Source: Candidatus Daviesbacteria bacterium (GTDB lineage Bacteria > Patescibacteriota > Microgenomatia > Daviesbacterales > UBA10151). Taken from it: a DNA stretch of 64,000 nucleotides. Below are positions 9,759-42,169 of the stretch, one piece after another; position 1 is the stretch's first letter; each line of letters opens with the position of its first letter. The DNA is taken from the NCBI GenBank assembly GCA_028715175.1, contig JAQUSJ010000001.1, forward strand, positions 71,760 through 135,759, in the 5' to 3' direction. Under the pieces are notes generated by a model. It saw nothing but the letters and a program-made list of their open reading frames with translations. It did not search any database and was not told the origin of the DNA. The translations under genes were made by a program, and so were the position numbers.

Positions 9759-10934
9759 TTAGGATAAGGATAAATTGGGGTTGGCTTGGAGTTTTAAGGG
9801 GTTAATGGGATGGAAGTTATAAAAGACAGCAGCGGCAATCATGGCTGCATTATCAGTGCAGAGCTCTGGTGGTGGTACAGAGAGTCTGATAGCTGAAGAC
9901 TGACATCTGATAGCTAATTCTGAGACCAGTTTCTGGTTAGCGGCTACACCGCCAGCGATCATTATTTGGTTGACTTTGTAAGTTTGAACGGCTTTGATAG
10001 TTTTGGCAACTAAAACATCAACAATAGCAGCTTCTATGGAAGCACAAAAATTAGCCAGCTCGGGGTCCTGCCGGCTCGATATCCCGTCGTACATCCTCAC
10101 TCGACTTCGCTCGCTGCGGCTACGCGCCGGGATGCCCTTCTTGCCGTCACCCCTCACCTCCTTTAGCAGATTTGCCACCGCTGTTTTTAAGCCGGAAAAG
10201 GAGAAATCAAAATCTTTGGAATCTATCATCGGTCTAGGGAGACTAAACCTCAAGGCGTCCCCTTGCGAGGCTAAATTGGCAATGGCCGGTCCTCCCGGGT
10301 ATGGCAGTCCCAGGAGTCTGGCGCATTTATCAAAACACTCTCCGGCTGCATCATCTCTGGTTCCGCCTAAATACTCATATTTGCCATGATCTTTAAATAA
10401 AATCAGATCTGTGTGCCCACCGGACACAAGCAGGCCAATGCAGGGGAATTGAGGGTAGCTTTCAGTCTTCAGTATCGCTTCGTCCGCCTTTGGCGTGGCT
10501 TCGCTGTCAGCTTTCAGACTTGTTTTGTCTGACGACTGACGACTGACGACTGACGACTGAGCACCCCAATTTGCATAAAAGTGTCCGAGCAGGTGATTTA
10601 CAGGAATAAGAGGTTTATTCCATAAAAAAGCTAGTGTTTTGGCAGTTTCTACGCCAATCAGAAGTGAGCCAATTAGTCCGGGTCCTTGTGTGATTGCAAT
10701 TGCATTTAACTTGTTACTTGTTACTTGTGCCTTATTCAAACCTTCCTCAATTACCGGTATAATGCTTCTTAATTGTTCTCTGGCAGCTTGCTCAGGTATC
10801 ACGCCTCCATATTTTGCCTGGATAGAAGCTGATGATGCCACAACATTGGATAAAATTTTTATCCGATTTCCGGTCTTTTGTACTACTGCAGCCGCAGTTT
10901 CATCACAGGAGGTTTCGATACCAAGAATTATCAT
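9759..10934 (-). CDS. tsaD: tRNA N6-adenosine threonylcarbamoyltransferase TsaD (Kae1/YgjD family), carrying several in-frame repeat-derived insertions
   Basis: 'MIILGIETSCDETAAAVV', 'GGVAAN' and 'CTDNAAMIA' motifs. At 391 aa it is about 50 aa longer than typical TsaD. The extra segments coincide with the repeats at 9886-9924, 10075-10165, 10480-10560 and 10708-10728. Confidence 0.85.
   Translation of the reverse strand: MIILGIETSCDETAAAVVQKTGNRIKILSNVVASSASIQAKYGGVIPEQAAREQLRSIIPVIEEGLNKAQVTSNKLNAIAITQGPGLIGSLLIGVETAKTLAFLWNKPLIPVNHLLGHFYANWGAQSSVVSRQSSDKTSLKADSEATPKADEAILKTESYPQFPCIGLLVSGGHTDLILFKDHGKYEYLGGTRDDAAGECFDKCARLLGLPYPGGPAIANLASQGDALRFSLPRPMIDSKDFDFSFSGLKTAVANLLKEVRGDGKKGIPARSRSERSRVRMYDGISSRQDPELANFCASIEAAIVDVLVAKTIKAVQTYKVNQIMIAGGVAANQKLVSELAIRCQSSAIRLSVPPPELCTDNAAMIAAAVFYNFHPINPLKLQANPNLSLS
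9886..9924. repeat. Repeat 'ctgatagctgaagactgacatctgatagctaat' (same family as 17474-17498 and 41398-41409)
   Basis: The 18-mer 'ctgatagctgaagactga' is shared with 17474-17491, and 'ctgatagctaat' with 41398-41409. It is translated in frame in tsaD as 'ELAIRCQSSAIRLS'. Confidence 0.7.
10530..10560. repeat. Tandem heptamer (TGACGAC)x4, in frame in tsaD
   Basis: Read directly. It encodes 'VVSRQSSDK' on the coding strand. Confidence 0.85.
10708..10728. repeat. Tandem heptamer (ACTTGTT)x3, in frame in tsaD (encodes 'KAQVTSNKLN')
   Basis: Read directly. It is the same unit as the arrays flanking the four-helix-bundle gene. Confidence 0.75.
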
Positions 10935-10971
10935 GGTGGTATTGTAACAAATTTAGAGGTAAAATTCGGGA

Positions 10972-11814
10972 GTGATTCCTAAACAAGAGTATAAATTTAT
11001 CAAAGACGCTTTGTGGGTTTCTTATACGGCTTTAAAGGATTTTTTAAAGTGTCCCAATGCCTATTATTTAAAAAATATCTATAAAGATCCGAAAACCGGT
11101 TTTAGGTTGCAAATCGCTTCACCATATTTGAGTCTAGGATCTGTGGTGCATGATAGCGCCAGGTGGCTGCTGGACTTGCAAGGTCAGGTTACCAAAGATC
11201 AGTTAGAGCAAAAGTTCAGGAATTTATGGCTGAAATATCGGGGCAAAAGAGGCGGATTTTCTTCAAAGAAGGAGGAAGGAGATTTTGGCAGGCGTGGTTT
11301 GGAAATGATAGGAAATTTTTATAAAAACTGGAAAGTTTTGGGAAAGGCCGCTCCTCAAGTTGCTTTTCCGAAATACCAGCTTACGGATAATGTGATTTTA
11401 ATTGGTAACTTTGATTTTGTGGAAGAGCGGCCTGATGGATCTTTGCATATTGTGGATTTTAAAACCGGAGCTACAGATGAAGATGACAGCTTACAGCTTT
11501 ACATTTATGCCATACTGGCTGAAGCAAATTTTGGGAAACCGGTTACCAGAGCTTCTTTTTGGTATTTGGATAGGGAAGATACACCAAGGGAGATTGTCTT
11601 GGATCCGCTAGAACCCAAACTGGATTGGTTAAAAGGAAAAGTTTTAGAGCTTAAAAAAGCTATTGAAAAGGGCAACTGGGTTTGTATTAAAAAGGAACTT
11701 TGTCGTGATTGCCGGGATTATCAAGCTATAATTAACGGTAAAGGTGAATTCCAATTCTCAGATTTTAGGTATAAAAAGGATATTTACTATCTACCTAAAA
11801 TCAACCACAGTTAA
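10972..11814 (+). CDS. PD-(D/E)XK nuclease, Cas4/RecB-like with Fe-S cysteine cluster (orphan, no CRISPR nearby)
   Basis: N-terminal Cys in 'FLKCPNAYYL'; 'IGNFDFVEE'; 'IVDFKTG' (D-x-K); 'LQLYIYAIL' (QhxxY); C-terminal 'CIKKELCRDCRDY' (C-x6-C-x2-C). Confidence 0.7.
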   Translation: MIPKQEYKFIKDALWVSYTALKDFLKCPNAYYLKNIYKDPKTGFRLQIASPYLSLGSVVHDSARWLLDLQGQVTKDQLEQKFRNLWLKYRGKRGGFSSKKEEGDFGRRGLEMIGNFYKNWKVLGKAAPQVAFPKYQLTDNVILIGNFDFVEERPDGSLHIVDFKTGATDEDDSLQLYIYAILAEANFGKPVTRASFWYLDREDTPREIVLDPLEPKLDWLKGKVLELKKAIEKGNWVCIKKELCRDCRDYQAIINGKGEFQFSDFRYKKDIYYLPKINHS

Positions 11815-11968
11815 TTTTATTTGAGGAATTAATGTCTGCAAATTTGCCTGAATAGCTTGAAATGACACTAAATTCTCTCTCGGAATTTCAAGAGCTATAA
11901 AATCTCATAAACCTATAACTTGACAAAACCTCTTGAAAAGCCTCAAGATATTATTTAGCCCATAAAAT

Positions 11969-12904
11969 ATGGCAGCAGCCGCGAACAAAGAAAGTATTTT
12001 TGAGTCAGAGCAGGGACTACCAGCAGATAATATAATAGGAATCGGGACAGCTCGTGCTCCTGGTTCGTGCGGTGACCTAGTTCTAAGCAAAAAAGACCGT
12101 TTTTCTATTCCTTGTTCCATAAATCGTTTTGTAGACGCAACAGTTACTCTTTATGAGGGGAACGGAGCGCATATTTATGGTCCACAAAATCGTCGTAGAG
12201 CATTAAGAGCAGTTCGTGAAACGCTATCTTATTCAAATAAAAGCGAGTTCAGCGCTCGGGTTCATATTGACAATGATATTCCAAGGGGTATGGCGAGTAG
12301 TGCAGCTAGTGTTGTAGCAGCTATTGGAGCAACAGTTAAAGCCTTAGGTAGAGAAGGGTTATCTCCAGCAGAAGTTGCCTTTCTTGCCTCTAAGGTTGGG
12401 GTAAAGGATGCTATTATGTTTCCGGAGCTCACTCGACTTAGATTTAATCGTGGAGAATTATCTTGTGAGGAGTTGGGACCACCTCCATCAATCGATGTTC
12501 TTGCTCTTGTTTTTTGGGGTAAGATAGGACGGAGGAATAATCGATCCCCTTCTAGAGATGCAATCGACAACGCCTTATACTTTATAAGGACAGGTGCTGT
12601 CAGAGACAAACCCTCATTGGTTGGTAGTGGTGCAACTATGAGCACAAAAGCTCAGCAATATTGTGATCCTGAAACAGTTAGACCAGTTTTTTCTTTTGCT
12701 GAGAGAATTGGGGCTATTGGTGTTACGGCACCCAAAGGATCTGTAATTGGTATTCTTCTAAGTAAAAATTCACTCCCGCCGACAGAGGCTTTAGTGAAGG
12801 CACGAGATGCTTTTCCTATAATTAAAGTGGGCTATTGTCTTAAGATAATTAAGGGTGGTGTGAGATTTAAAGAGGATGATTTAGGAGAGGATTCACCAGC
12901 TTGA
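11969..12904 (+). CDS. GHMP kinase family protein, compositionally atypical (GC-richer than its surroundings)
   Basis: 'IPRGMASSAASVVAAIGA' matches the GHMP kinase phosphate-binding loop (PxGxGLGSSAA). Subfamily not assignable by eye. Confidence 0.5.
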   Translation: MAAAANKESIFESEQGLPADNIIGIGTARAPGSCGDLVLSKKDRFSIPCSINRFVDATVTLYEGNGAHIYGPQNRRRALRAVRETLSYSNKSEFSARVHIDNDIPRGMASSAASVVAAIGATVKALGREGLSPAEVAFLASKVGVKDAIMFPELTRLRFNRGELSCEELGPPPSIDVLALVFWGKIGRRNNRSPSRDAIDNALYFIRTGAVRDKPSLVGSGATMSTKAQQYCDPETVRPVFSFAERIGAIGVTAPKGSVIGILLSKNSLPPTEALVKARDAFPIIKVGYCLKIIKGGVRFKEDDLGEDSPA

Positions 12905-12912
12905 TTTATATT

Positions 12913-12947
12913 GACAAAAAACTTGGTTTATTTTACTATTAAATTAC
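12913..12947 (+). promoter_or_regulatory. Sigma70-like promoter (TTGACA, 17 nt spacer, TACTAT/TATTAAAT)
   Basis: 'ttgacaaaaaacttggtttattttactattaaat' lies immediately after the GHMP-kinase stop. Confidence 0.35.
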
Positions 12948-12949
12948 AA

Positions 12950-13111
12950 TTTAATATTTAATCAAGAGCGATGGGGAGAGTTTTGGCTCAATGATCCATC
13001 CAGCAACCGATCCAAAAGACACGGTGCTAAACCCAAGCCCGTAAGGGAAGGATTAGTCCTGAGTGCAATTGAAGGAAAACACATTTAACCTCTCTTTACG
13101 GGAGGTTTTTT
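12950..13111 (+). ncRNA. Candidate small structured RNA or leader (about 160 nt), bounded by a promoter and a strong intrinsic terminator
   Basis: There is no ORF. The segment ends in the hairpin CCTCTC-TTTAC-GGGAGG followed by TTTTTT at 13089-13111. Its class was not recognised. Confidence 0.3.
13089..13111 (+). terminator. Intrinsic terminator (6-bp stem including one G-U pair, then T6)
   Basis: Read directly. Confidence 0.6.
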
Positions 13112-13159
13112 AATGGTTTGATTGTACTTACTATAAAGTAGAAGGGAGGTTGAGATTAC

Positions 13160-13432
13160 GTGTTAGTAGAATTTGAAAATTCAAGTATCAGACTGAAGAT
13201 TCCTGTAGGTACAGGAAAAGATTCTGAGCAACATATTATAGAAAGGGATAAGCCTTTTGATCCGGCAATATTTGGGCTCGCACATAGATGTCCGGGAGCT
13301 CTGTCAGCAGCAATAGATCAGTTAAGGCTTCGAGCTGAAATATTAAATAATGGAGACAGAAGATTTGTCAGTCACGTGGCTGATAATTTATATGCAGCCA
13401 TTGTGGCTATTAGAAACAGTGAAGAAATATAG
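13160..13432 (+). CDS. Hypothetical protein (90 aa)
   Basis: GTG start preceded by a strong SD 'AAGGGAGG' at -8. Convergent and abutting ahcY. Confidence 0.4.
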   Translation: MLVEFENSSIRLKIPVGTGKDSEQHIIERDKPFDPAIFGLAHRCPGALSAAIDQLRLRAEILNNGDRRFVSHVADNLYAAIVAIRNSEEI

Positions 13433-13433
13433 T

Positions 13434-14690
13434 TTAAGTTCCTTCAGTCCAGGAGGTTAGGTATTTTTTTTGTTCTTCTGTTAAAGAGTCAATTTTAATG
13501 CCTAATGATTCCAGTTTTAATTTGGCAATCATCTCATCCAGCTCTTTTGGCACAGTATAAACATCTGCCTTAAGTTTGCCGCGGTTTTGTACCAGGTACT
13601 CCGCTGCCAATGCTTGATTGGCAAAGGACATATCCATTACATCAGGCGGATGGCCTTCTGCCGAGGCTAAATTAATCAGTCTGCCTTCTGCAAGTACAAA
13701 AATCTTTTTATCTCCCTCCAAAGTAATTTCTTCCAAATTATCCCGGAGTATCCTTCTGTTTTTGGCCGCTTTGACTAAGCCTTCATAATCAAACTCCACA
13801 TTAAAGTGTCCGGTATTGGCTACAATGGCGCCGTCTTTCATTTTTTTAAAATGTTCCACCGAGAGGACTGTTTTATTACCGGTGGCCGTACAAATAATGT
13901 CCGCAATTTTGATGGCTTGATCCATCGGCATTACCTCATACCCATCCATGGTAGCCTCCAGTGCCTTGAGCGGATCAACTTCTGTGATTATTACCAGCGA
14001 CCCCATGCCTCTGGCCCGTTGCGCCAAACCTCTGCCGCACCAGCCGTAACCGCAAACCACAAAGCGTTTTCCGGCCAAAAGCACATTGGTGGCCCGGATC
14101 ACTCCATCAATAGTTGACTGGCCTGTGCCATAACGGTTATCAAACATGTGTTTGGTGCTAGAGTCGTTTACCGCCATCACCGGTATTTTTAGCGTGCCGT
14201 CTTTCAGCATGGCCCGGAGTCTAATGACCCCTGTGGTTGTTTCCTCAGATGAGCCGATGACATCTTTAAGCTGGGATTTTCTTTCTGTGTGGAGCAAAGT
14301 TACCAAATCCGCTCCGTCATCCATGGTAATTTGCGGATTAAAGTCCAAAACAACGTTTAGATGTTTATAATAGGTATCTTTATCCTCGCCTTTTATGGCA
14401 AAAGTAGGGATTTGGTAATCTTCTACCAAAGATGCAGCCACCTCATCCTGGGTAGACAGGGGATTTGAGGCACAAAGAGCCAAATTCGCTCCACCCATCT
14501 TTAAAGCAATCATTAAATTGGCGGTTTCTGAGGTGACATGCAGACAAGCTCCCAAAGTAATACCTTTAAGCGGTTTTTCCTTGGCAAACCTGTCTTTGAT
14601 CAAATTTAAGACTTTCATTTGGGATCTGGCCCATTCAATTTTCAGTTTGCCTTTGGCAGCCAAATTTTTATCTTTAATATCAGACTTCAT
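13434..14690 (-). CDS. ahcY: Adenosylhomocysteinase
   Basis: Conserved N-terminus '[19 protein letters not shown]' and an NAD-binding '[11 protein letters not shown]'-type region. Confidence 0.9.
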
Positions 14691-15618
14691 ATTTCAATTC
14701 TTCTCCAAAATTCTCCTGATATCTTTTTTTAAACTCTTCCAGTGTAAATGTATGTGTAGTTGTACCATATTTTTCTACTGTGTAACAAGCGGCAACTGCT
14801 CCCATTTGTCCGCAAATTTGTAGATCCAAGTTTTTTAAATAGCCTGCCAAAAATCCGGCCCGGTAGGCGTCACCTGCGCCTGTGGGATCAACAGTTGTTT
14901 TGGGTTTTGCAGCTGGGATGGAATAAGTTTTTTGACTAGTTTGTACTATTGACCCTTTTTCTCCTAAAGTAGTGATTAAAATTTTAACTTGTGTCAGCAA
15001 TTGTTGTTCATCCAGTGAGACTTTTTCTTTTAATAGGCTGATTTCGTAATCATTCCCAATCAAGATAGTTGCGTTAGCTATCATCATTTTTAGGTCTTCC
15101 GGGTTCAGCGCCGGAAGTTGCATTCCCGGGTCCAGCATATAGTCAATACCTAAGTTTTGGCATTCTTTGGCAAACTTCACCATCGCTTTCGGGTTATTTG
15201 GTGAAATCACCACCAGATCAGTTTTGGTGTTGTTTAGAGAAAGTGTCTCGGCATCATTCATAGCTCCGGGATAAAAGGCGGTGATTTGGTTATCAGCAAT
15301 ATCAGTCATAATAAATGCGGAAGAGGTGGGTTCGTTTTCGACTATCTTGATTTTTGATACATCAATACTTGCTCGTTCTAAAAATTCAGAATACTCTGCA
15401 AAATCTGAACCTGCTGATCCAACTATGGAAACCGGACATCCTAACAAAGCTAGGTTATAGGCAATGTTTCCGGCAGTGCCGCCTTTTTGTTTTTTTAAAG
15501 TGGTGACTAAAAAAGATAAATTGATCTGGTGAATTTTATCCGGCATGATATGGTCGGAAAATCTGCCTGGATAATCCATAATATGATCAAAAGCCAAAGA
15601 ACCGGTAACTGTTATCAT
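14680..15618 (-). CDS. PfkB-family carbohydrate/nucleoside kinase (adenosine kinase-like)
   Basis: '[17 protein letters not shown]' is the PfkB signature. Its position next to ahcY suggests adenosine salvage. Confidence 0.7.
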
Positions 15619-17382: not shown

Positions 17383-17420
17383 CCCGCTATTGTATCGTTT
17401 TAGGGTATAATTGAAAAGGA

Positions 17421-17498
17421 GCTGTCAGCTCTCAGTCGTCAGTCGTCAGACTTGTAATTTTCTTAGTCTGAAGGCTGATAGCTGAAGACTGATGACTA
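17421..17498. repeat. Palindromic element built from heptamer units: 'tcagtcgtcagtcgtcagac', a 14-nt spacer, then 'gtctgaaggctgatagctgaagactga'
   Basis: Read directly. It sits between a -10/SD-like 'gggtataattgaaaaggag' and the ATG at 17502. Confidence 0.7.
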
Positions 17499-17501
17499 CT
17501 A

Positions 17502-18812
17502 ATGAAGCGAATTATAATTATTGTCTTAAGTTTAAGTATAGTTTTAGGGTTTTTATTTTGGAAATTCGGGCCGAGCATCACACTTTTTAACAAACCCAAA
17601 ACCCAAGGTCCAATTACACTTACCTTTTGGGGGCTTTGGGAAGACGAGAGTCTGATTAAACCGTTGATTGCCGAATATCAAAAACAACACCCGAATGTTT
17701 CTGTCCGCTACGAACGGGAATCATCGATAAATTATAGAACCAGGGTCCAGACGCAAATCAGGGAAGGCGTCGGACCGGACGTTTTTATGATCCACAACTC
17801 CTGGCTGCCGATGTTTGAGAGCGATCTAGCTCCGGTTCCCGCAGATCTGCTGACCTTTGCGGATTATAAAAACATGTTTTATCCGGTTAATGCTGATAGT
17901 TTTGTGAAGAATAATCAAATTTATGGCGCGCCTATGGGAATAGACGGATTGGCTCTTTTTTATAATGAAGATATATTAAACGGAGTGGGAGGTAAGCCTC
18001 CAAAAAACTGGCAGGAATTTATAGATTCCGCAACCAAAATGACGGTGAAGGATGCAAGCGGTATACAAACTGCCGGTGCAGCCATAGGGACAGCAGGTAA
18101 TGTTGATCATTGGTCTGATATTTTGGGGCTTTTACTTATGCAGCAACCAGCTGTTGATTTAAACAACCTGGTAACGCCTCAGGCGACAGAAGTATTGCGG
18201 TTTTACACCAGTTTTGTAACCGATCCGAGAAGAAAGACATGGGATGTGAATTTGCCGAGATCCACGGATATGTTTGCCCAAGGCAGGTTAGGTTTTTACT
18301 TTGCGCCTTCCTGGAGGGCGCATGAGTTAAGAGTAGCAAATCCAAACTTAAAATTTAAAGTTGCCCCTGTACCGCAGCTGTCCGGAAAAGTTGTATCCTG
18401 GGCTACATTTTGGGGCGTTGTAGTATCTGCCAAATCCAAAAACACATCCGAGGCTTGGAAATTTGTTAAGTATTTAACTTCTGCGGAAGCTGAAAAGTTG
18501 GCTTACCAGGAAGCTGCAAAGGTAAGATTATTTGGTGAGCCGTATTCGCAAGTGAGTTTGTCGGCAGAATTGTCTCAAGATCCGATAGTTGGAGCTTTTG
18601 TTTCTCAAGGTCCAAGTTATAAATTCTGGTATCTTGCTTCAAACACCTTTGACAATGGGATTAATGATGAGATGATTAAATACTTTGAAGATGGAATCAA
18701 TGCTACTTTGGCAGGGATTAATCCTCAGACAGCTTTACAAACAGTCGATAAGGGCGTAAAGCAAGTATTGGATAAATATACAAAACCGCCACCTGCTCCG
18801 AGCGGAAGATAA
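17502..18812 (+). CDS. ABC transporter extracellular solute-binding protein (family 1, sugar-type)
   Basis: Signal/TM N-terminus and SBP_bac_1-like sequence. There are no adjacent permease genes. Confidence 0.65.
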   Translation: MKRIIIIVLSLSIVLGFLFWKFGPSITLFNKPKTQGPITLTFWGLWEDESLIKPLIAEYQKQHPNVSVRYERESSINYRTRVQTQIREGVGPDVFMIHNSWLPMFESDLAPVPADLLTFADYKNMFYPVNADSFVKNNQIYGAPMGIDGLALFYNEDILNGVGGKPPKNWQEFIDSATKMTVKDASGIQTAGAAIGTAGNVDHWSDILGLLLMQQPAVDLNNLVTPQATEVLRFYTSFVTDPRRKTWDVNLPRSTDMFAQGRLGFYFAPSWRAHELRVANPNLKFKVAPVPQLSGKVVSWATFWGVVVSAKSKNTSEAWKFVKYLTSAEAEKLAYQEAAKVRLFGEPYSQVSLSAELSQDPIVGAFVSQGPSYKFWYLASNTFDNGINDEMIKYFEDGINATLAGINPQTALQTVDKGVKQVLDKYTKPPPAPSGR

Positions 18813-19418: not shown

Positions 19419-20378
19419 AAGCGGTAGATTAATTAGCTGGACTTCGGGTTCTAAGGTGATGCCGAATTTTTCTTTGACTTTTTGGGCATATTGTTTTGCC
19501 AATTCACAGAAAGCTTTGGCAGTGCCGCCGCCTGTATTTATAAACAAATTAGCATGGTTCGGTGAAATTTCTATTCCGTCTAATAATTTCCCTTTAGCTC
19601 TGACTGCTTCAAGTAGTACTCCGGCTGGCAGTTTCCCGTAAACTATTTTTTCTGGCTGGATCCTATCCAAAATATCTTTTGGTAAAGTTTCTGCCACAAT
19701 ATTTTTGAAAAAAGACCCAGGGCATTTTATGCCGGGAGGGTATTTAACCAGCCTTTTTGCAAGGATCTCTTTAACTTCCTGTTGCAAGGCTTCCGGATCG
19801 CCACTTTCCAGCTTGAAAGTAACTTCCAGAATAATGTCATGGTTTTGTTTGAAGATACTATCCCGATAATTAAACTGACATTCTTCTTTTGAAAGAGTAG
19901 TTATATTCTTCGCTTCACTCAGAATGACAACAGAGATAATATGATCGGAAATTGTTTGGCCATAAGCTCCGGCATTTCCATAAACTGCTCCGCCAACAGT
20001 ACCCGGAATCCCGGTGAGTTTTTGCAGTCCAGAAAACTCATTTTCGATGGTGTAATCAACAAAATCCTGCAAAAGAGTGCCACTTTTAACACTCAACATC
20101 ACACCTCCGAGGTGTAACAGCATTTCTTCACCTCGGAGGTGAGTTTCTTCTATGCCGGAAACCTCATTTTTAATAACCAAACAATCTATTCCTTCATCAG
20201 AAACTAATAAGTTGCTGCCGCCGCCAATTATCAGATAAGACATTAATTGATCTTTGGCATATTTTATGGCTTCTATTAATTCTTCCTCTGTTTTAACCTT
20301 GACAAATTTTTTGGCAGGGCCACCAATTTGTAAGGTGGTTATTTGACTCATTGGATAGTTATCCTTAAATTTAAGCAT
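19410..20378 (-). CDS. murB: UDP-N-acetylenolpyruvoylglucosamine reductase
   Basis: FAD-binding 'LQIGGPAKKF...IIGGGSNLL' N-terminus and the MurB C-terminal domain. Confidence 0.85.
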   Translation of the reverse strand: MLKFKDNYPMSQITTLQIGGPAKKFVKVKTEEELIEAIKYAKDQLMSYLIIGGGSNLLVSDEGIDCLVIKNEVSGIEETHLRGEEMLLHLGGVMLSVKSGTLLQDFVDYTIENEFSGLQKLTGIPGTVGGAVYGNAGAYGQTISDHIISVVILSEAKNITTLSKEECQFNYRDSIFKQNHDIILEVTFKLESGDPEALQQEVKEILAKRLVKYPPGIKCPGSFFKNIVAETLPKDILDRIQPEKIVYGKLPAGVLLEAVRAKGKLLDGIEISPNHANLFINTGGGTAKAFCELAKQYAQKVKEKFGITLEPEVQLINLPLLN

Positions 20379-25028: not shown

Positions 25029-25622
25029 ATGGTTAAGTTTCATTACCGCGAGTCTCCTACCGAAAAGCAAAAAAAGGCTTTCAGAAAATATTTATCTGAA
25101 GATGAAGAATTGGTTTTGGTAACCAGTCTATCTAAAGCTTATATAAGATCTAAGTTTATACTTAACTTACTTTTCCCGGGAATGCTATTTTTGGGGCTTG
25201 GTTTAGGGGTAGGATGGTTTTTTAATATTGGCAGAATTTGGGCCCTTGTTTTGGGATTAGGATTTATGTTTTTATCAGCCATACTTAAAACGATGCATGT
25301 TTATCATGCCAACAGATATTTGTTAACCACCAGAAGAGTCATTATTAAAAAAGGGTTATTCTCTGTTAAGCTGACTGCCGCACTTTTTGATAAAATTACC
25401 AATCTAGTGGTAGACCAATCGATTATTGACAGGTTGCTTTTACATCACGGTACCATTGTTGTAAATACAGCCGGAGTCAGCAAAGGAGAAATAATATTGA
25501 AATATGTGGATTCGCCTATGGAACTCAAAAATTTACTTGAAAGGTTAATTAACCGTGAAAGGGAACAATTTGGACTAAGGGGAGCTAGCTTAACAGAAGT
25601 GGAAGGAGAGATTATTACGTAG
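25029..25622 (+). CDS. Bacterial PH-domain (YdbS/YdbT-like) membrane protein
   Basis: Two TM helices followed by a bPH_2-like domain ('LLTTRRVIIKKGLFS'). Its last 26 codons lie in direct repeat A. Confidence 0.5.
   Translation: MVKFHYRESPTEKQKKAFRKYLSEDEELVLVTSLSKAYIRSKFILNLLFPGMLFLGLGLGVGWFFNIGRIWALVLGLGFMFLSAILKTMHVYHANRYLLTTRRVIIKKGLFSVKLTAALFDKITNLVVDQSIIDRLLLHHGTIVVNTAGVSKGEIILKYVDSPMELKNLLERLINREREQFGLRGASLTEVEGEIIT
25539..25616. repeat. Direct repeat A (the actual 3' end of the PH-domain gene)
   Basis: Aligned by eye with 30223-30300. Confidence 0.85.
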
Positions 25623-30222: not shown

Positions 30223-30300
30223 GAAAGGTTAATTAATCGCGAAAGAGAACAATTTGGACTAAGGGGAGCTAGCTTAACAGAAGTGGAAGGAGAGATTATT
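30223..30300. repeat. Direct repeat B (a non-coding duplicate of the PH-domain gene 3' end, att-like)
   Basis: It starts 7 nt after the M16 peptidase stop. It would encode 'FLERLINREREQFGLRGASLTEVEGEIIS*'. Confidence 0.85.
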
Positions 30301-34179: not shown

Positions 34180-34186
34180 AAATTTT

Positions 34187-36004: not shown

Positions 36005-36018
36005 ATGATCCGCAGGAT

Positions 36019-36906
36019 CTAAATCTTAAATATCTTTTTAGCATTCTCCGTAGTTTGATTAGAAACCGTTTCAAATGTGATTCCTTTGAGATTAGCGATC
36101 AGACGGGCAATTTCTTTGACGCTAGAGGGTTCATTCCTTTGGCCACGTTTACTTTGGGGAGCGAGAAACGGGGAATCGGTTTCTAAAAGGATCCGTTCTA
36201 AAGGGATAATTTTGGCGGCTTCCCTTAAGTATTCATTTTTGGGGTAAGTGATATTAGCTGCAAAAGCCACTAAAAAGTTAGTAGTCTGTAGTAGGTAGTT
36301 GGTAGTTTGGGGAAGACCGGAATAGCAGTGATAAACTCCAAAATGATCTTTGGTCATATCAATAGCAGTTTGCCAGCATTCGGAATTTTCAGGATTTTTT
36401 GAGCGGTCATCACGGCAATGAACAACTAAAGGCAGATTTAATTTTTTGGCCAAATCAATTTGGGCCTGAAAAAGTTTTTTCTGGAGAATTTTAATCTGGT
36501 CTGGTGGAATAGATGGAGGAGTGAAACCAGGATTGCTGTTAAAGAAAAAATCCAGCCCACATTCTCCAATCCCAGCGACCTTTTCTGAATTACTTCTATA
36601 AATCTCTTCTAATTGGGTTATATCGTTTACCAAATCCTTTTGTACGTTTGTACCACGATCGGAGGATGTTTATGATTGTTGGTATTTAATTGCTTCGTGC
36701 GGATGGATGCCGATAGTGGAATATACTGATAAACCTTTAGGCCATTTAGTATTTTTAGCCTGATTCAAAGCTTCCTTGCTTTTTTCAATATCTACTCCAA
36801 TGTTGATGATTGCAGAAATTCCGCTATCTAAAGCTCTTTGGATTACTTCATCAAAATCTTCTTTATATGATTCCCAGTAAAGATGGGCATGTGTATCAAT
36901 TAACAT
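36019..36906 (-). pseudogene. tatD: TatD-family hydrolase interrupted by a single in-frame TAA (fragments 36670-36906 and 36019-36633)
   Basis: N-terminal fragment 'MLIDTHAHLY...IGIHPHEA' and C-terminal fragment '...AGIGECGLDFF...ETDSPFLAP' are in the same frame, separated by TAA plus 12 codons. The C-terminal fragment also contains heptamer repeat 36280-36310. Confidence 0.55.
36280..36310. repeat. Heptamer array (GGTAGTT-like), in frame in tatD (encodes 'PQTTNYLLQTTNFL')
   Basis: 'gtagtctgtagtaggtagttggtagtttgg'. Confidence 0.7.
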
Positions 36907-36926
36907 ATACGAGCGTTATTCTTTCC

Positions 36927-36988
36927 TGTCATCCTGAGGCGATTAGCCGAAGGATATGATTATATTCTTCACTTCGTTCAGAATGACG
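36927..36988. repeat. Palindromic repeat element, GTCATCCTGAGCG family (intergenic tatD/metG)
   Basis: 'tgtcatcctgaggcgattagccgaagga...cttcgttcagaatgacg' imperfect inverted repeat. Confidence 0.75.
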
Positions 36989-36998
36989 ATTCTCTTCA

Positions 36999-38420
36999 TT
37001 AAATCCTTGGAAATAGAGGAGGTTGCGATTTAATAGCTCCGGAAAATTGTTTTAAAATTTTTTCGGAAGTTTCGGGTAAAAAAGGTTGTAATTTTAGGTT
37101 TAGATATCTAATTGCGTCTACTACAACTTGCATAACATTGATTAAATTTTGTCCTTTGAGTTTCCATGGTTGTTGATTATTTATATAATGGTCAATGATT
37201 CTTATTTCATCCCATATTAATTTTAGCGCTTCATCAAATCTGTAATTTTCCAAAGCCTTTGCATATAGAGTTGTTATATCTCCTGACGTTGTCGGTATAC
37301 TTGTTACAAGTTTGTTTATTGAGGGATTATTGTCCGAAATTGTTATGTTTTCGCAGAGTTTGGCAACTCTTGCCACTAAGTTCCCTAATCCATTTGCTAA
37401 GTCTGCATTATATAAGCGATCAAGAGCATCCCATGAAAAATCGCCATCTTCACCAAATGGAAATGCAGCCAGCAAAACATATCTAGTTCCATCTACACCG
37501 TATTTTTCTACTAATTGATCTGGACTAATTACATTTCCTAAAGTCTTAGACATCTTTTGTCCATTAACAGTAAAAAACCCATGTGCGAAAATTTGTTTTG
37601 GTAGTTTTTCGTCAATTGCCAGAAGCATTGCCGGCCAAATTATTGCATGAAACCAAAGAATATCTTTGCCTACCAAGTGAAGATCTGCCGGCCAAAAATT
37701 ATTTTGCGATCCATAAGTATAGTAATTAATTAAAGCTTCTATCCAAACATAAGCTGTGTGAGAGCAGTCAAAAGGTAGTGGAATTCCCCATTCAAGATTC
37801 GCTCTTGAAATAGAGATATCCTCCAAACCCTGTTTGATTTTACCCAGTATTTCGTTTTTCCTTGATTGCGGACTAATTTTAATTGTGTCAGAAGTGATTA
37901 GTTGTTCTAACTGTTTTTGATAAGCTGTTAGTTTAAAGTAGTAATTCTCTTCTGAGTGTTCGATTGGTTTGGTTTGGTGATCAGGACACAAACCGTTGAC
38001 TAATTCTTCCGGCGACATAAATTTTTCATGCCCTACACAATACAATCCCTTATAAAGTCGGGGTTTAGCATCAATTGCGCCCTTATCGTAAAGTTTCTGT
38101 AAAAATTTCTGTGCCATTTTTATGTGATCTTCATCAGTAGTTCTAATAAATCTAACAAAATCAATATCTAATTTCTCCCAAGCTTGTTTGAATTCTTCTG
38201 AAATCTTATCAGCATAGTCCTTAGGTTGTTGATTATGTTTTTTGGCTGCTTCAGCTATTTTTGCACCATGTTCATCAGTGCCAACTAATAATCTGGCATC
38301 GTAACCTTTGCATTTCCAGTAACGGGTTAAAACATCAGCTGCTACTGTAGGATACGCATGGCCGATGTGGGGGACATCATTAACATAATAAATTGGAGTT
38401 GTAATAAAAAATTTATTCAT
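36999..38420 (-). CDS. metG: Methionine--tRNA ligase (compact form)
   Basis: 'PIYYVNDVPHIGHAY' (HIGH) and 'KMSKTLGNVISP' (KMSKS). Confidence 0.85.
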   Translation of the reverse strand: MNKFFITTPIYYVNDVPHIGHAYPTVAADVLTRYWKCKGYDARLLVGTDEHGAKIAEAAKKHNQQPKDYADKISEEFKQAWEKLDIDFVRFIRTTDEDHIKMAQKFLQKLYDKGAIDAKPRLYKGLYCVGHEKFMSPEELVNGLCPDHQTKPIEHSEENYYFKLTAYQKQLEQLITSDTIKISPQSRKNEILGKIKQGLEDISISRANLEWGIPLPFDCSHTAYVWIEALINYYTYGSQNNFWPADLHLVGKDILWFHAIIWPAMLLAIDEKLPKQIFAHGFFTVNGQKMSKTLGNVISPDQLVEKYGVDGTRYVLLAAFPFGEDGDFSWDALDRLYNADLANGLGNLVARVAKLCENITISDNNPSINKLVTSIPTTSGDITTLYAKALENYRFDEALKLIWDEIRIIDHYINNQQPWKLKGQNLINVMQVVVDAIRYLNLKLQPFLPETSEKILKQFSGAIKSQPPLFPRI

Positions 38421-38788
38421 AGTTTCTTCGTCAGTTTAGGGATTTTTGATAATTTAGTCAATTTATGTTTTTTAATTTTCCTAAAATAACTGAAAAGTAA
38501 ATAAGTGGCAGCAACAGTTAATAGAGCAGTTACAATATTTAAAGTATCCAAAGCTTTAAGGATGAGTAGAAAAATGAGACCTAAAGAGAAAGAACAAGAA
38601 GAAAGAATATTTCTTAAAAAGATATTAAGAGTAAATATTAATGCCAAATATAAAGGAGTCAAAAATAGAATCAGCTGAGTATAATTTGCCTGGGTTAGAC
38701 TTTCAGGGTATGGTACTTGTAAAACCACAAATATAAAAATCCCCCAAAAAAACAAAACAGAAATAATTTTTGGAAAAACTTCAGGCAT
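38417..38788 (-). CDS. Hypothetical membrane protein
   Basis: 123 aa with 3-4 TM segments. ATGA overlap with metG. Confidence 0.3.
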   Translation of the reverse strand: MPEVFPKIISVLFFWGIFIFVVLQVPYPESLTQANYTQLILFLTPLYLALIFTLNIFLRNILSSCSFSLGLIFLLILKALDTLNIVTALLTVAATYLLFSYFRKIKKHKLTKLSKIPKLTKKL

Positions 38789-38802
38789 ATATCAATTGTA
38801 AA

Positions 38803-40974
38803 CTAAACTCCCGCCATTTCAAAAGTGGATCCCATGGAATTTTTGGAAACTTCGATCCGGACTGGGAATTCTTCTTTTAACTCTTCAATATGGGTGATAA
38901 CTAAAATTTTTTCAAAATCCCCTTTAATTGCATCAATTGCCTCAACCAGCTTAGCTCTTCCCGGTGCATCTTGAGAACCAAAACCTTCATCGATAACTAA
39001 AAATTGTAGTTTTGCTCCGGCCCGATGGGTAAGCAGTTTTGAAATAGCCAGTCGGACGGCAAAATTAACCCTAAAGGCTTCACCACCCGAATACATCTCA
39101 TAAGGTCTTTCACCCATTTCATCCGAAATAATAATATCCAATGTTTCTATGATGCCTTTTTCTCCGCTATCTAATTTAGTTTTTGTTTCCCGCTGGGTCA
39201 AAAGAGTAATCTTCATTCTTCCTTCTGTAAGTTTTTCTAAAAGTTTATTTGCCTCATCCTCAATTTCCGGAATGGCTCCCTCAATAATCATTGCCTGAAT
39301 CCCTTTTTTACCAAAAGCTAAAGCCAGTTCCTCAAAAGTTCCTTTTTCTTTTGCAAGTTTAGATTTTTCATCTGATTTTTGTTTTTTTAAGTTTTCCATC
39401 TGAGCAGTCCGGGAGATAAGTTCATTAATTTGCCCCAGCATTCCTTGAGCCTCTTTTTCTTCTGTTCGTAATTTTGCCATTTCCTGTTCTGCTTCATTGA
39501 TTTCAAGGTTAACTTTGGATAGTTTTTCAGGTAAATCAGATGGAAGTGCTACAATTTCTCTTTTCAGAGTATCGACCTGGGCTTTTTTATTTACAAACAT
39601 TGCCCGCATTTCCGAAACTACCTTTTCTTCGCTTGCAAGGGTGGCCTGAATTTTTAACATTTGTTCTTTGTCGGCTTGGGCCTTTTCCAAACCCTCAAGC
39701 TTTGTACAAATATCAAGATATTTACTTTGGTCGAAGACAAAATTTTTTAATGTGCTTTCTATTTTTTTGATTCTTTCTTCTTCAATAGCAAAATCTATTT
39801 CTTTTAAACTTTTTTGTAAAACTTGGATCTGGTCTGTTATGTTTTTGTGGACATGTTCCTTTTCGGTTTTGCCGATTTCCTGTCCGCAAGTAGGACACTT
39901 GGCCCCGGATATTTTAGTTTCTTTCAACTGGCTGTTTAATTTTTCTATTTCATTTTTAAACTGCTCTGATTTTTGTTTTTTCAAATTAATTTGTCCTAAA
40001 ATATCTGAAAGCTCTTTTTCTAACTCCATCCTTTTTTGTTTTATTTCATCCAGTTTATTCTTCTCACCTTGTAAATCTTTTAATTCTGAAAGTTCCGCGG
40101 TTACTTTATTTAACTTACTCAACTCTTCTTTTAAGGATTCAATTTTAAATTTGCGGTTTTTACCCTGGAAAATGATTTCTTCCAGCTCTTTTTTATTTTG
40201 CAGGAAATTTTGTTCTAATTTTGTTTTTTGTTCATTTGCTATTTTTAGAGTTTCGCGTTTATCTTGTAAATTTTTAATTTTTTCTTGCAGAGTTTTTATT
40301 TTTTCTTCAACTTGAACAATAGTTTCTTCTGCCACTCTTTTCTTCTCACTCCTTTCTTCTTTTTGGGAAAGCTCTGCTTCTATTTCTAAAGTCTGGTATT
40401 CCAAAAGTTGGAGTTTGCTTTGGATCTCTTTTATTTTTTCTTTGGCTTTCTCTTCCAGTAAGTCATAATGGGACAACCCTAAAATATCTGCCAGGATTCT
40501 TTTTCTATCGGTCGGGCCTTTGGTGGTAAATTCATCCGCATGACCCTGGCGGAGGTATGAAGAGTTGGTAAAGGTTTCAAAAGTTAAATGCAAACAGTTG
40601 ATAATTTTTTCTTGGGTGGCTTTTATTGTCCCCTCTGTTAGGTTATGTGATCCGGCTGCGCCGGACCAAAATTCCAAAGTAGTGGAACCGCCACCTTTTT
40701 TGACACGTTTTCTTTCCAGTCTATAAATATTTCCATCTAATTCAAAAGAAAATTCAACACTCATCTCATTAGCGCCTGAGTGGATTAAAGAATCGGCAGA
40801 ATCACCTGCCCGCGATACTCCCCAGATGCACCAGGTGATGGCATCCAAAAGCGATGATTTGCCGGCTCCGTTTAAGCCGGATATAGCAGCCAGTTTAAAT
40901 TTGGTAAAGTCCAACTCAGGCGGATTATCAGCATAACTGGTGAAATTTGATAATTTTAATTTTACCGGTATCAT
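38803..40974 (-). CDS. sbcC: SbcC/Rad50-like ATPase with zinc hook
   Basis: Walker A 'GLNGAGKSSLLDAITW', a long coiled coil with 'CPTCGQ' hook, and the C-terminal signature/Walker B 'LQFLVIDEGFGSQD'. Confidence 0.8.
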   Translation of the reverse strand: MIPVKLKLSNFTSYADNPPELDFTKFKLAAISGLNGAGKSSLLDAITWCIWGVSRAGDSADSLIHSGANEMSVEFSFELDGNIYRLERKRVKKGGGSTTLEFWSGAAGSHNLTEGTIKATQEKIINCLHLTFETFTNSSYLRQGHADEFTTKGPTDRKRILADILGLSHYDLLEEKAKEKIKEIQSKLQLLEYQTLEIEAELSQKEERSEKKRVAEETIVQVEEKIKTLQEKIKNLQDKRETLKIANEQKTKLEQNFLQNKKELEEIIFQGKNRKFKIESLKEELSKLNKVTAELSELKDLQGEKNKLDEIKQKRMELEKELSDILGQINLKKQKSEQFKNEIEKLNSQLKETKISGAKCPTCGQEIGKTEKEHVHKNITDQIQVLQKSLKEIDFAIEEERIKKIESTLKNFVFDQSKYLDICTKLEGLEKAQADKEQMLKIQATLASEEKVVSEMRAMFVNKKAQVDTLKREIVALPSDLPEKLSKVNLEINEAEQEMAKLRTEEKEAQGMLGQINELISRTAQMENLKKQKSDEKSKLAKEKGTFEELALAFGKKGIQAMIIEGAIPEIEDEANKLLEKLTEGRMKITLLTQRETKTKLDSGEKGIIETLDIIISDEMGERPYEMYSGGEAFRVNFAVRLAISKLLTHRAGAKLQFLVIDEGFGSQDAPGRAKLVEAIDAIKGDFEKILVITHIEELKEEFPVRIEVSKNSMGSTFEMAGV

Positions 40975-40975
40975 A

Positions 40976-42169
40976 TTAGTTTTCTAAAAGCGCTGCGGCG
41001 TAATTTTCCAGTTCCTTTTGTTTGCCAGGGGAATATTTTTTTGCTTCAAAGTATTTTTTTAAAGCAGCAATAGGAGTTAAACTTTCTACATCTTTTCCTA
41101 AATCGATTTTTTCCCTTTCAACTTTTTCAATGTTTCGGGAAATTCCAGCTAAAATATGAGCGGAAGATAGTGCTTTTTTAATTTTGTCCATCTCAATATC
41201 TTTATCCAACTCTGCCGGTATATTTATTACCAGCCGGATAATTTTATCAGCAAGAGCGCACTTTTTAATTTCATCTAATACTATTTGGGTTGGGTCAAGA
41301 TCTGTAGTTTTTAAATTAACAGTAACTGTTAAAAATTTTCTTGCTCCTGAGGGAATAAATTTATAGCTTGTTTCAAATTTATCTGACGACTGACGACTGA
41401 TAGCTAATATCTCGACTATTATAAAACCTTTTTCTTCTTTCTCTTCGCCGAAATCTATCCGCTCTGGAGAACCGGAGTAAACAATTAGTGGTCCGGCACC
41501 TGCCGGACTAGAAAGAACTTGATGTTTGTGAATATGGCCTAAAGCCACATAAGAGATCCTTTTATCTTGAAGAAGCGGCAGAGGAATTGTGATATCGTTT
41601 CCGATAGCCAGTCCCTTTTCCGACCCAAAAACTGAACCTTCAATTTCGGCATGCGAGGCCAGTATTGCAGGTCCGCCAGCTGGCGGAGGCTTAATTTTTT
41701 CATACATAAGTTTTAATTTTTCGGCAACTTGCTTGTAGTCATTTTTATGGAGCCAGGGAAGAGTAATAACTTGTAAATTGCCGGATTTGGTCTTAATTTG
41801 CAAAAGTTCCGGAAATCTTGAAACCCAGACATTTTCTATCTCCAGGGCAGAGTAGATATCCAAAGTATTGGCTTTGCCTTCTGCATTTGGAGTGTCATGG
41901 TTTCCCACCACCAGCACAACAGGGATTTTTTTGGCCAGTATCTTAATTCTTTCTCCAAATCCCCGCTGTTGGGTGGGGTTTGGATCTCTGGTTTTATAGG
42001 CATCTCCTGCAAAAATGACTGCGTCAACCTGCTCTTCAAAAGCTTTTTCCACTATAAAATCAAAAGTCTTAAAAAAGTCGAGTAATCTGGTAGAAAGTCC
42101 GGTTTCCGGATCCAACCTGGTATAATTTTCCATACCAATATGCAGGTCGGAAAAATGAAGTAGTTTCAT
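40976..42169 (-). CDS. sbcD: SbcD/Mre11-like nuclease
   Basis: 'LLHFSDLHIG', 'GDAYKTRDP' and 'GNHD' calcineurin-like phosphoesterase motifs. It contains the in-frame repeat at 41383-41409. Confidence 0.85.
   Translation of the reverse strand: MKLLHFSDLHIGMENYTRLDPETGLSTRLLDFFKTFDFIVEKAFEEQVDAVIFAGDAYKTRDPNPTQQRGFGERIKILAKKIPVVLVVGNHDTPNAEGKANTLDIYSALEIENVWVSRFPELLQIKTKSGNLQVITLPWLHKNDYKQVAEKLKLMYEKIKPPPAGGPAILASHAEIEGSVFGSEKGLAIGNDITIPLPLLQDKRISYVALGHIHKHQVLSSPAGAGPLIVYSGSPERIDFGEEKEEKGFIIVEILAISRQSSDKFETSYKFIPSGARKFLTVTVNLKTTDLDPTQIVLDEIKKCALADKIIRLVINIPAELDKDIEMDKIKKALSSAHILAGISRNIEKVEREKIDLGKDVESLTPIAALKKYFEAKKYSPGKQKELENYAAALLEN
41383..41409. repeat. Repeat 'ctgacgactgacgactgatagctaat', in frame in sbcD (encodes 'ILAISRQSSDK')
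   Basis: Same family as 10530-10560 and 9886-9924. Confidence 0.8.

Follow-up and report, generated by a model that had tools for sequence, protein, structure and literature searches.

Short runs of a seven-nucleotide unit, CTGANNN, recur in tsaD, in sbcD and upstream of a solute-binding-protein gene within a 64-kb stretch of DNA (hereafter the window) from Candidatus Daviesbacteria, a lineage of the Microgenomates within the Candidate Phyla Radiation (CPR). These copies are probably dispersed heptanucleotide tandem arrays of the type described elsewhere as short tandemly repeated repetitive (STRR) sequences, long simple sequence repeats (SSRs) or TAACTGA repeats, filtered by stop codons, reading frame and the tolerance of the site, with the encoded peptide as a passenger. 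The STRR/TAACTGA class of heptamer repeats is known. What is new is that the arrays lie mostly inside conserved genes of a CPR bacterium.

The host, an uncultured bacterium, has a genome of roughly 0.74 Mb. The window has 38.5% G+C, is about 93% coding, and by Pfam its open reading frames (ORFs) have housekeeping functions nearly throughout; its TsaD is identical to NCBI MDD5415471.1. Two bodies of sequence served for comparison. The first was 829 kb in 80 metagenome loci encoding SbcD relatives. Fetched loci carry L-numbers and TsaD homologues P-numbers, P0006 being encoded on L120 and P0002 on L122. The second was a scan of one genome per species across many phyla with the 18-mer CTGACGACTGACGACTGA, which speaks to breadth across phyla and gives no per-genome counts; the source genome is not among the matches listed.

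CTGA arrays and the period-7 excess

The first-pass annotation had proposed that the copies form a dispersed repeat family, and the window bears this out. Three loci within the 64 kb contain the exact 18-mer CTGACGACTGACGACTGA (tsaD, sbcD and, as reverse complement, the intergenic copy), and a second 18-mer, CTGATAGCTGAAGACTGA, common to 9886-9903 and 17475-17492, ties in a fourth locus. Allowing up to two mismatches, TGACGACTGACGA has 7 matches against 0.39 expected. None of 100 shuffles reached 7, which together with the exact 18-mers at several loci excludes chance. CTGA arrays thus occupy four loci in the window, and they also occur in femAB, sbcD and tsaD of relatives. The window copies are as follows.

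10455 to 10565, minus strand: inverted heptamer-array insertion in tsaD, amino acids 124-160, GAQSSVVSRQSSDKTSLKADSEATPKADEAILKTESY
10479 to 10499, minus strand: 21-nt segment nested in the tsaD insertion, GCCACGCCAAAGGCGGACGAA, with a small CGCC-AAA-GGCG hairpin and flanking CGAAGC direct repeats
9879 to 9924, minus strand: six-unit TCAGNNN array in tsaD encoding SELAIRCQSSAIRLS, a same-length "array allele" that carries the 18-mer CTGATAGCTGAAGACTGA
17421 to 17498, no strand assigned: intergenic inverted pair, between a TATAAT box (17405-17410) and the ATG (17502) of a solute-binding-protein gene
41372 to 41407, minus strand: four-unit array in the hypervariable loop of sbcD, amino acids 255-266, LAISRQSSDKFE, a single arm with no hairpin

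Both coding runs first reported are where they were said to be. The tsaD run, (CTGACGA)x4.6 at 10529-10560, lies in the ORF at 9759-10934 (minus strand) and is read as ...AQSSVVSRQSSDK..., and the sbcD run, CTGACGACTGACGACTGATAGCTAAT at 41383-41409, lies in the ORF at 40976-42169 (minus strand) and is read as EILAISRQSSDKFE. Tandem Repeats Finder returned CTGACGA x4.6 at 10529-10560 (100% identity), x2.6 at 41383-41400 and x2.6 at 17432-17449. The tsaD run is only one arm of the inverted-array insertion of about 110 nt, the second arm having been overlooked. On the plus strand the second arm reads AGCTTTCAGTCTTCAG ... GCTGTCAGCTTTCAG, with the centre CAGAC-TTGTTTT-GTCTG; on the coding strand the insertion runs (TCAGTCG)x5, CAGAC-AAAACAA-GTCTG and then a CTGA arm of 2 + 2 units. 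Folded as single-stranded DNA it gives -25.4 kcal/mol (z -4.0), whereas the sbcD array (TTAGCTA TCAGTCG TCAGTCG TCAGATA on the coding strand) has no fold signal (z -0.71). A codon-level comparison found the nested 21-nt segment missing from the homologous L120 insert. It occurs once in the window, and we rejected it as a family resembling small dispersed repeats (SDRs).

The intergenic copy had been described as a 78-bp palindrome just upstream of an ATG. Its place is correct, ending 4 nt before the ATG at 17502, but the palindrome is imperfect: its 28-nt arms are 71% complementary across a 12-nt spacer, and other 7-nt registers reach 88%, several registers being available because of the 7-nt periodicity. 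The left arm is GCTGTCAGCTCTCAG(TCGTCAG)x2, the centre ACTTGT-AATTTTCT-TAGTCTGA, and the right arm CTGAAGG CTGATAG CTGAAGA CTGATGA CTAC; left arm and centre are nearly as in the tsaD insertion. What had been listed as a separate unit, GCTATCAG, is the junction between CTGATAG units. At 9886-9924 the reported translation and family membership stand, while the supposed insertion does not, since orthologues have equal length there. In an Rfam scan of the window no family covered any array copy. The sole match was an S-adenosylmethionine riboswitch (RF00162, 49.7 bits) at 12956-13058 on the plus strand, 3' of a GHMP-kinase-like ORF and facing the end of an S-adenosylhomocysteine hydrolase gene.

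The CTGA copies are part of a general excess of period-7 arrays in this genome and its relatives, not a private family. A tolerant scan of the window found 9 arrays at period 7 against 0-1 at each other period from 4 to 12. Four-mer chains (three recurrences at fixed spacing) numbered 69 at spacing 7 against 2-13 at the other spacings from 4 to 12, the leading four-mers being CTGA/TCAG, CTAC/GTAG and AACT. In the 829 kb of relatives there were 495 such chains at spacing 7 against 57-191 elsewhere, with the same top cores as in the window (CTAC 30, ACTA 27, CTGA 26). Under a strict criterion, 727 kb of non-redundant sequence contained 27 near-perfect arrays of period 7, and between 0 and 3 for each of the periods 5, 6 and 8-11. 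Every one of the 27 lies within an ORF, where dominance of period 7 is notable because periods 6 and 9 would keep the reading frame. Most units in the window match NNNNAGT (TCGTCAG-T, TCGTAGT, TGGTAGT, AACAAGT, ATGTAGT). The other window arrays are listed here.

10707 to 10729, minus strand: (ACTTGTT)x3 in tsaD, amino acids 68-77 (KAQVTSNKLN), ACT/AGT core, a separate heptamer family with length unchanged
48160 to 48237, minus strand: inverted array pair in the hypervariable loop of uvrD/pcrA, AGTTCGT x3.6 followed by ACTATGA-type units, IVHSSELLVHSKDKKTTNYELRTLNS
52132 to 52166, plus strand: (AACTACC)x4.9 in a holA-like gene, PPTTNYQLPTT, CTAC core in sense
36276 to 36310, minus strand: ACTACNN x4 in tatD, PQTTNYLLQTTN, a same-length array allele of a native helix
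57874 to 57936, plus strand: TATCGAA and AAACGAT arrays in lepA, …NIEYGTSEDKNDNRLTINDI…
63331 to 63360, plus strand: intergenic (GTAGTAT)x4 in the hrcA-grpE spacer, running into the grpE ATG at 63358
6531 to 6560 and 6831 to 6857, no strand assigned: inverted AAGTAAC / GTTACTT arrays in AGT-then-ACT polarity, flanking a 92-aa 23S_rRNA_IVP-family ORF

The uvrD pair, with its AGT/ACT cores, belongs to the same superfamily as the CTGA pairs, has the same polarity and gives an RNA fold z of -3.8. The AACGATA/TTATCGT unit of the lepA array was found again in several related loci.

The 23S_rRNA_IVP ORF (6563-6841, minus strand) encodes an Avd-like four-helix bundle that lacks the N-terminal part of the profile and has convergent genes around it. 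An association of arrays with such genes was rejected, as tblastn found no further copy in 1.8 Mb of fetched loci.

Polarity, sites and history of the arrays

The CTGACGA array motif is not lineage-specific. The multi-phylum scan matched at least 119 stretches, in Acidobacteriota, Chloroflexota, Planctomycetota, Cyanobacteria, Bacteroidota, Actinomycetota, Poribacteria and other phyla. The matches listed further include a deltaproteobacterial metagenome-assembled genome with many copies, one Woesearchaeota contig, and one other Patescibacteria contig (L024) whose surroundings closely resemble the window tsaD insertion. Many of them are (NNNTCAG)n - spacer - (CTGANNN)n pairs, the spacer often holding a G+C-rich stem, and the pairs often lie a few tens of bases 5' of an ATG. 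Wherever opposite arrays neighbour each other among these matches, the TCAG arm comes first (18 cases to 0; binomial p = 8e-6), and scoring by the ACT core gives 17:0. All three Daviesbacteria CTGA-core pairs (window tsaD, window intergenic, L120 tsaD) share this polarity, and the ACT-core pair of uvrD agrees. Fixed polarity means that hairpin formation alone is insufficient as an explanation. At loci below 55% G+C in other phyla, 32 listed arrays are intergenic and 4 lie at ORF edges against 17 within ORFs. The Daviesbacteria data have 13 arrays in ORFs and 2 in intergenic DNA, so the mainly intergenic placement of heptamer repeats does not extend to this lineage; most arrays are inside genes probably because so much of the genome (about 93%) is coding. 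Among the fetched loci, the signatures GCTGTCAGCTYTCAG and TCAGACTTGT turned up in the tsaD orthologue and otherwise in just three unrelated loci, all from Acidobacteriota (L039 and the Terriglobia L041 and L069), and a sub-family defined by them was dropped because the loci were too few.

Arrays and host genes have different histories. Outside its loop the window SbcD is 91-92% identical to the array-less L127, L128 and L130 proteins and 76-83% to array carriers. Sliding nucleotide identity places the window sbcD at 90-100% to L127/L128 over most of the gene, but within a patch of roughly 120 nt around the loop its identity to L127/L128 falls to 45-68%, while that to L124 reaches 91-95%. Likewise, tsaD of the window and of L120 are 55-78% identical over the gene and 87-97% within the insert. 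Non-orthologous copies at 10503-10523 and 17421-17455 also have non-periodic sequence in common, GCTGTCAGCT(T/C)TCAG plus TCAGACTTGT. Mosaic patches and shared non-periodic sequence argue for copying and patch-wise recombination between strains, not independent slippage. PilO-/PilN-like genes at 53710-54904 point to type IV pilus or competence-like machinery, which could be relevant to the DNA uptake that mosaic patches imply.

These data bear most directly on the possibility that the arrays are ordinary SSRs, each born by slippage at its own site with no copying between sites. Perfect head-to-tail units do exist, CTGACGA runs occur in unrelated phyla among the matches listed, the same-length array alleles of tatD start at a native ACTAC (Thr-Thr) seed, and in many bacteria no class of long SSR is as common as the heptamers (Mrazek 2007, as cited in PMC4679880 and PMC4692102). 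Independent slippage fits poorly with non-periodic flanks and centres common to non-orthologous copies, with patches far more alike between genomes than their host genes, with a polarity of 18:0 among the matches listed, and with the dominance of a few cores (CTGA, CTAC). Orthologous coding arrays, moreover, showed no unit-number polymorphism in 7-nt steps, and no frameshifted allele or length variant was found among array orthologues. We consider this explanation unlikely. Phase-variable contingency SSRs, in which a change of unit number switches expression and which typically belong to surface or virulence genes, were rejected, the hosts being housekeeping genes (tsaD, sbcD, uvrD, holA, lepA) with no length variants.

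Comparison of TsaD and SbcD orthologues, as had been proposed, identified tsaD 10455-10565 and sbcD 41372-41407 as in-frame insertions relative to many of them. The sites are hot spots that receive different repeats in different lineages. TsaD homologues range from 327 to 445 aa. Short ones have nothing in the loop that separates YANW from P-FPC; the window protein and P0006 have the CTGA hairpin there, P0002 has an inverted array of ACTAC type, and P0005 and P0028 have palindromic families rich in G+C. The P0002 gene (L122 5247-6323) has its (CCGACTA)-type inverted array, with an ACTAC core followed by AAGACGG units, exactly at the site of the window's CTGA hairpin. In SbcD the loop after EEKEEKG varies from 13 to 45 aa. 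Six sequences (window, L124, L126, L129, L185 and L199) have the four-unit TCAG array, and others have QVARIKPARS, LRAQAK…PRND, VIPAKAGI…SGMT or HSELDSESK…NEFGMT. The array is absent from the SbcD of L127, L128 and L130 and from most TsaD homologues. At the IEPDV site of FemAB, L152, L164 and L185 have …QSSVVSRQSSD… and the window has VVLSETKD…IAQND, and the UvrD loop similarly holds different repeat families in different lineages. In a close relative (L127 588-3653) UvrD/PcrA carries an intein (Hint, Intein_splicing) after GDASQ that the window gene lacks.

An AlphaFold2 model of the window TsaD (mean pLDDT, the predicted local distance difference test score, 75.6) renders the array insert (amino acids 127-158) as coil with pLDDT below 50, and the insert is thus predicted to be disordered. 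A second segment of coil below 50, at amino acids 264-288, is a G+C-rich insert. This in-frame insert in a second TsaD loop (10059-10136, amino acids 267-292, GIPARSRSERSRVRMYDGISSRQDPE) has related inserts at the same site in P0004, P0010, P0011 and P0021, and is probably the repeat family that the first-pass annotation had counted as its first. The array at 9886-9924 is modelled as helix 334-346 and strand 350-352 with pLDDT of about 90, its length is equal in all orthologues, and the L122 orthologue has a decayed version, ELATRCKSLAVRLS. The tatD array, ACTACCA ACTACCT ACTACAG ACTACTA (TTNYLLQTTN), likewise occupies a helix position, which in other Daviesbacteria has either the array form or a non-array form (TTQKAIQKAS, TTAKVLQIPN), patchily even among closest relatives. 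Arrays can therefore take the place of native segments without a change of length, which simple insertion does not explain. Elsewhere in tatD (36019-36906, minus strand), an in-frame TAA at 36670-36672 in a variable loop (…HPHEAIKYQQS*TSSDRGTNVQKD…) interrupts a gene that is uninterrupted in orthologues; it could reflect a pseudogene, a split gene or an assembly error.

The hairpin-like architecture and the dispersed copies, present or absent at orthologous sites, recall non-autonomous miniature elements, whether repetitive extragenic palindromic (REP) sequences, miniature inverted-repeat transposable elements or hairpins like Rickettsia palindromic elements (RPEs), moved in trans by a transposase encoded elsewhere. 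In-frame insertion into housekeeping genes resembles RPEs (PMC10969869), and the array pair at the 23S_rRNA_IVP gene flanks it like terminal repeats. Against such elements, neither defined ends nor terminal inverted repeats beyond the periodic cores could be recognised; arm inversion is limited to the 4-nt cores, at 71-88% complementarity. Comparison of filled and empty sbcD sites revealed no recognisable target-site duplication. Copies differ in unit number and in the make-up of their arms, that of sbcD is single-armed, and copies of 27 to 110 nt, some single arms and some pairs, yield no full-length family consensus. Transposition, moreover, does not yield same-length replacement alleles. 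No transposase, integrase, reverse transcriptase or REP-associated tyrosine transposase-like protein was found among the 59 ORFs of the window (9% of the contig), and an RNase H domain protein at 1653-2060 was the sole related match. A miniature-element origin is accordingly an account to which we give only a slight chance.

The array cores were compared position by position. Over six sbcD arrays and two tsaD hairpins, polymorphism affects 1 of 52 core (TCAG/CTGA) positions and 13 of the 39 others (p = 4e-5); when third codon positions are counted alone, it affects 0 of 16 and 6 of 13 (p = 0.004). Non-core changes alter amino acids freely. The TCAG core is thus conserved at the nucleotide level in two of three orthologous sets, the set at tsaD 9886-9924 showing the opposite. 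CTGA/ACT recurring at 7-nt intervals may be a cis-element that some factor recognises as nucleic acid, and the heptamer arrays of cyanobacteria, Beggiatoaceae, Acidobacteriota and CPR bacteria may be one system with one mechanism; we consider this rather improbable. Candidate readers would be a cold-shock, S1 or KH single-strand DNA- or RNA-binding protein, or a replication or repair enzyme. If a factor does read the arrays, the fixed polarity would reflect the working of that factor or of the process that creates the arrays, and the element would persist in essential genes under nucleotide-level constraint and be able to overwrite native codons.

Two arrays, 17468-17498 and 63331-63360, abut the ATG of the following gene, a placement that matches reports for Beggiatoaceae and Nostoc. 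The 17421-17498 region folds as RNA at -34.6 kcal/mol (z -3.3) and as DNA with z -3.76. Shine-Dalgarno-like motifs precede only 8 of the 59 window genes. Many have a TANAAT -10 box 6-12 nt before the start codon (for example at 10934, 42169, 49257 and 20378), a proximity that suggests widespread leaderless or very short-leader mRNAs. Deletion of the 78 nt at 17421-17498 would restore leaderless-type spacing, and the copy, if active at all, might act as a 5'-leader hairpin on an otherwise leaderless-type gene. AAGGAG at 17416-17421, bridged to the start by the hairpin as a Shine-Dalgarno sequence, was rejected as the main idea, given the scarcity of such motifs and the prevalence of close -10 boxes.

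Repeats of other kinds are also dispersed in the window. Palindromic families of the …TTCGCTTCACTCAGAATGAC… and …GATCCTTCGACTC…GCTCAGGA… types lie at 19901-19928, 36960-36987 and 44689-44716; at 47223-47270 and 60812-60859; and at 47866-47928. Some palindromic families are translated in frame, as in FemAB (VVLSETKD…IAQND) and UvrD (VILSDNEGSNLYSSAPPQNDN). Direct repeats of 78 nt at 25539-25616 and 30223-30300, 96% identical, encode the C-terminal 26 aa of a bPH_2 protein. The 4.7-kb block between them, with a methyltransferase, YcaO, a nitroreductase-family protein and an M16 peptidase, looks like an inserted island of the ribosomally synthesized and post-translationally modified peptide type with a duplicated target.

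Strand, frame and the encoded peptide

The copies in tsaD and sbcD had been reported to share orientation and frame relative to the coding strand, and either selection on the encoded peptide or an orientation-specific insertion mechanism had been offered as the reason. The shared orientation is confirmed for all coding copies. As 7 and 3 are coprime, CTGANNN on the coding strand brings a TGA into frame with every third unit, and CTGA runs of three or more units therefore survive only in antisense. In all data, including the matches listed, CTGA arrays in ORFs number 0 sense and 66 antisense. CTAC arrays in ORFs have the mirror bias (15 of 15 sense), because the complement GTAG carries TAG. The tsaD hairpin is instructive, as its sense arm is split into 2 units, a spacer and 2 units. 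CTAC stands where a third unit would have brought a TGA into frame.

Unit orientation could also be set by an insertion mechanism sensitive to the direction of transcription or replication. Every in-ORF CTGA array is antisense, and strict pair polarity does mean that some directional process exists. Yet the stop filter alone gives 100% antisense for runs of three or more units and predicts the opposite orientation of the CTAC family, and hairpins within genes hold both orientations, the sense arm having lost its third TGA. Orientation-specific insertion is thus not a needed cause. It adds nothing required by the data, and we regard it as very unlikely.

The claim of a shared frame survives in part. 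Because a run of at least three units is read in each of the three frames in turn, its peptide is SSVVSRQ in some cyclic permutation, and "same frame" concerns the end of the run only. That end, …TCG TCA GAY (SRQSSD), is indeed shared by three independent genes, tsaD, sbcD and the femAB of relatives, but as a signal it fails, since three events in one frame have p ~0.11 with three open frames. Other phases are used by the 9886 array and by the femAB array of L168. The same peptide in distant orthologues, which had been named as grounds for refutation, was seen in part: the SbcD of four other Daviesbacteria sequences and one TsaD carry homologous arrays. These patches are more alike than the genes around them, and so suggest that sequence was transferred or copied and is not an old part of the protein. 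A search with (SSVVSRQ)n as a route to the diversity of host proteins was abandoned, its matches being just 31 hypothetical ORFs, all tiny (34-81 aa).

That the peptide (…SRQSSDK…) is useful to TsaD and SbcD, so that inserts are kept, would account for the SRQSSD reading in both and in relatives' FemAB and for the retention of arrays in several orthologues, but it is hardly credible when the tsaD insert is predicted to be disordered, non-core positions accept R/H, S/T/L, I/V, D/A and K/R replacements while synonymous core positions stay fixed, closest relatives have no insert or an unrelated family at the same site, and three frames per unit leave no single peptide. No evidence favours selection on the encoded sequence.

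Origin of the arrays and their relation to known repeats

The reading that we prefer, dispersed heptamer arrays filtered by what their hosts tolerate, can be put as follows. The unit would be CTGANNN (NNNTCAG on the coding strand), often laid down as an inverted pair with the TCAG arm 5', the CTGA arm 3' and a short centre. Arrays may arise or extend by misalignment or template switching in 7-nt register, and may reach new places through ectopic copying and, among related strains, through short patches exchanged by homologous recombination. Survival in a gene would then depend on three conditions: the coding strand must be the stop-free strand, the net length change must preserve the reading frame, and the site must be tolerant, a surface loop taking an insertion and a helix a same-length replacement. 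The SSVVSRQ-type peptide would be a passenger.

Several points weigh against this reading. The steps of generation and spread are ones we infer, none having been directly observed, and simple slippage predicts neither the fixed polarity nor the same-length array alleles. Orthologous coding arrays all keep equal unit number, and thus give no sign of ongoing slippage; the only difference of 14 nt separates the tsaD copy from the intergenic one, which are not orthologous. Core conservation was measured in small samples of sequences partly chosen by peptide similarity, and the tsaD 9886-9924 array compared with L122 has 5 core and 2 variable changes, which moves the pooled value to p = 0.007. In other phyla, units beside CTGACGA runs show no clean split into core and variable positions. 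The examined sequence is 64 kb of a 743.7-kb contig (9%), and the multi-phylum figures hold among the matches listed.

To our knowledge, heptamer tandem repeats have been known for 35 years, mainly from cyanobacteria, with neither a mechanism nor a reader protein. Mazel is said to have described, in 1990, the cyanobacterial STRR units CCCCAGT and CAACAGT. Most window arrays resemble STRR and long SSR sequences in their NNNNAGT units; they differ in lying mostly within genes, STRR being described as intergenic. Elhai reportedly described, in 2008, SDRs of Nostoc as fixed 21-27-nt sequences, present or absent between relatives, in a heptamer-rich genome. SDRs are like the Daviesbacteria copies in being very small dispersed elements with presence/absence between relatives, but an SDR is a fixed sequence and the copies here are 7-mer arrays.

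The closest published relatives of the units are the TAACTGA direct repeats of marine Beggiatoaceae, Cyanobacteria and Bacteroidetes, 7-nt units in 2 to 6 or more copies, scattered across many loci together with other heptamers (MacGregor 2015, PMC4679880). Their forward strand stops in all three frames while the reverse is translatable, and many copies lie directly 5' of start codons without a Shine-Dalgarno sequence (PMC4679880). Heptamer excess, this forward-stop/reverse-translatable logic and arrays beside start codons are thus on record (PMC4679880, PMC4692102, bioRxiv 10.1101/2022.06.06.494920), as are heptamers as an over-represented tandem-repeat period (Mrazek 2007, as cited in PMC4679880 and PMC4692102). 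The Daviesbacteria arrays share head-to-tail 7-nt units, period-7 over-representation and a dispersed unit with related units mixed in. Window units contain CTGA (TAACTGA is CTGATAA rotated), the copies at 17468-17498 and 63331-63360 adjoin starts, and the stop logic is common to both. They differ in the variable triplet (CGA, TAG, AGA and others) and in inverted pairs, reported for TAACTGA only once. Beggiatoaceae copies are overwhelmingly intergenic, with a few intragenic at protein ends or in hypothetical ORFs, whereas those of Daviesbacteria are nearly all in conserved housekeeping genes.

Xanthomonas GGGAATC and Nostoc GGGGA(T/C)T repeats, with positions 1-4 and 6 conserved, variable unit number and some stem-loop-capable inverted pairs (PMC4692102), are similar as dispersed arrays of conserved and variable positions, but they are G-rich, quadruplex-capable and intergenic, whereas the Daviesbacteria repeats are mostly coding and not rich in G. 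In behaviour within genes the nearest parallel is the Rickettsia RPE, a translated hairpin repeat found in frame and fold-compatible in unrelated housekeeping genes (as reviewed in PMC10969869). RPEs are discrete, about 100-150 bp long, family-specific in sequence and conserved in peptide, whereas the Daviesbacteria elements are 25-110 nt, built of 7-nt units in variable copy number, and encode no fixed peptide. In the searchable literature we found no description of in-frame heptamer arrays in essential genes, in hot-spot loops or in CPR/Patescibacteria hosts.

The presence of arrays in essential genes makes comparisons of orthologues natural experiments, in which codon degeneracy separates DNA-level from protein-level constraint, hot-spot loops reveal what a protein tolerates, and mosaic patches reveal exchange between strains. 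Together with the other repeat families, arrays inflate and diversify the loops of CPR proteins and so affect alignments, phylogenies and structure prediction, and intergenic copies create spurious "hypothetical proteins". The strict polarity that the pairs keep in many phyla offers a simple and testable lead on how arrays come about.

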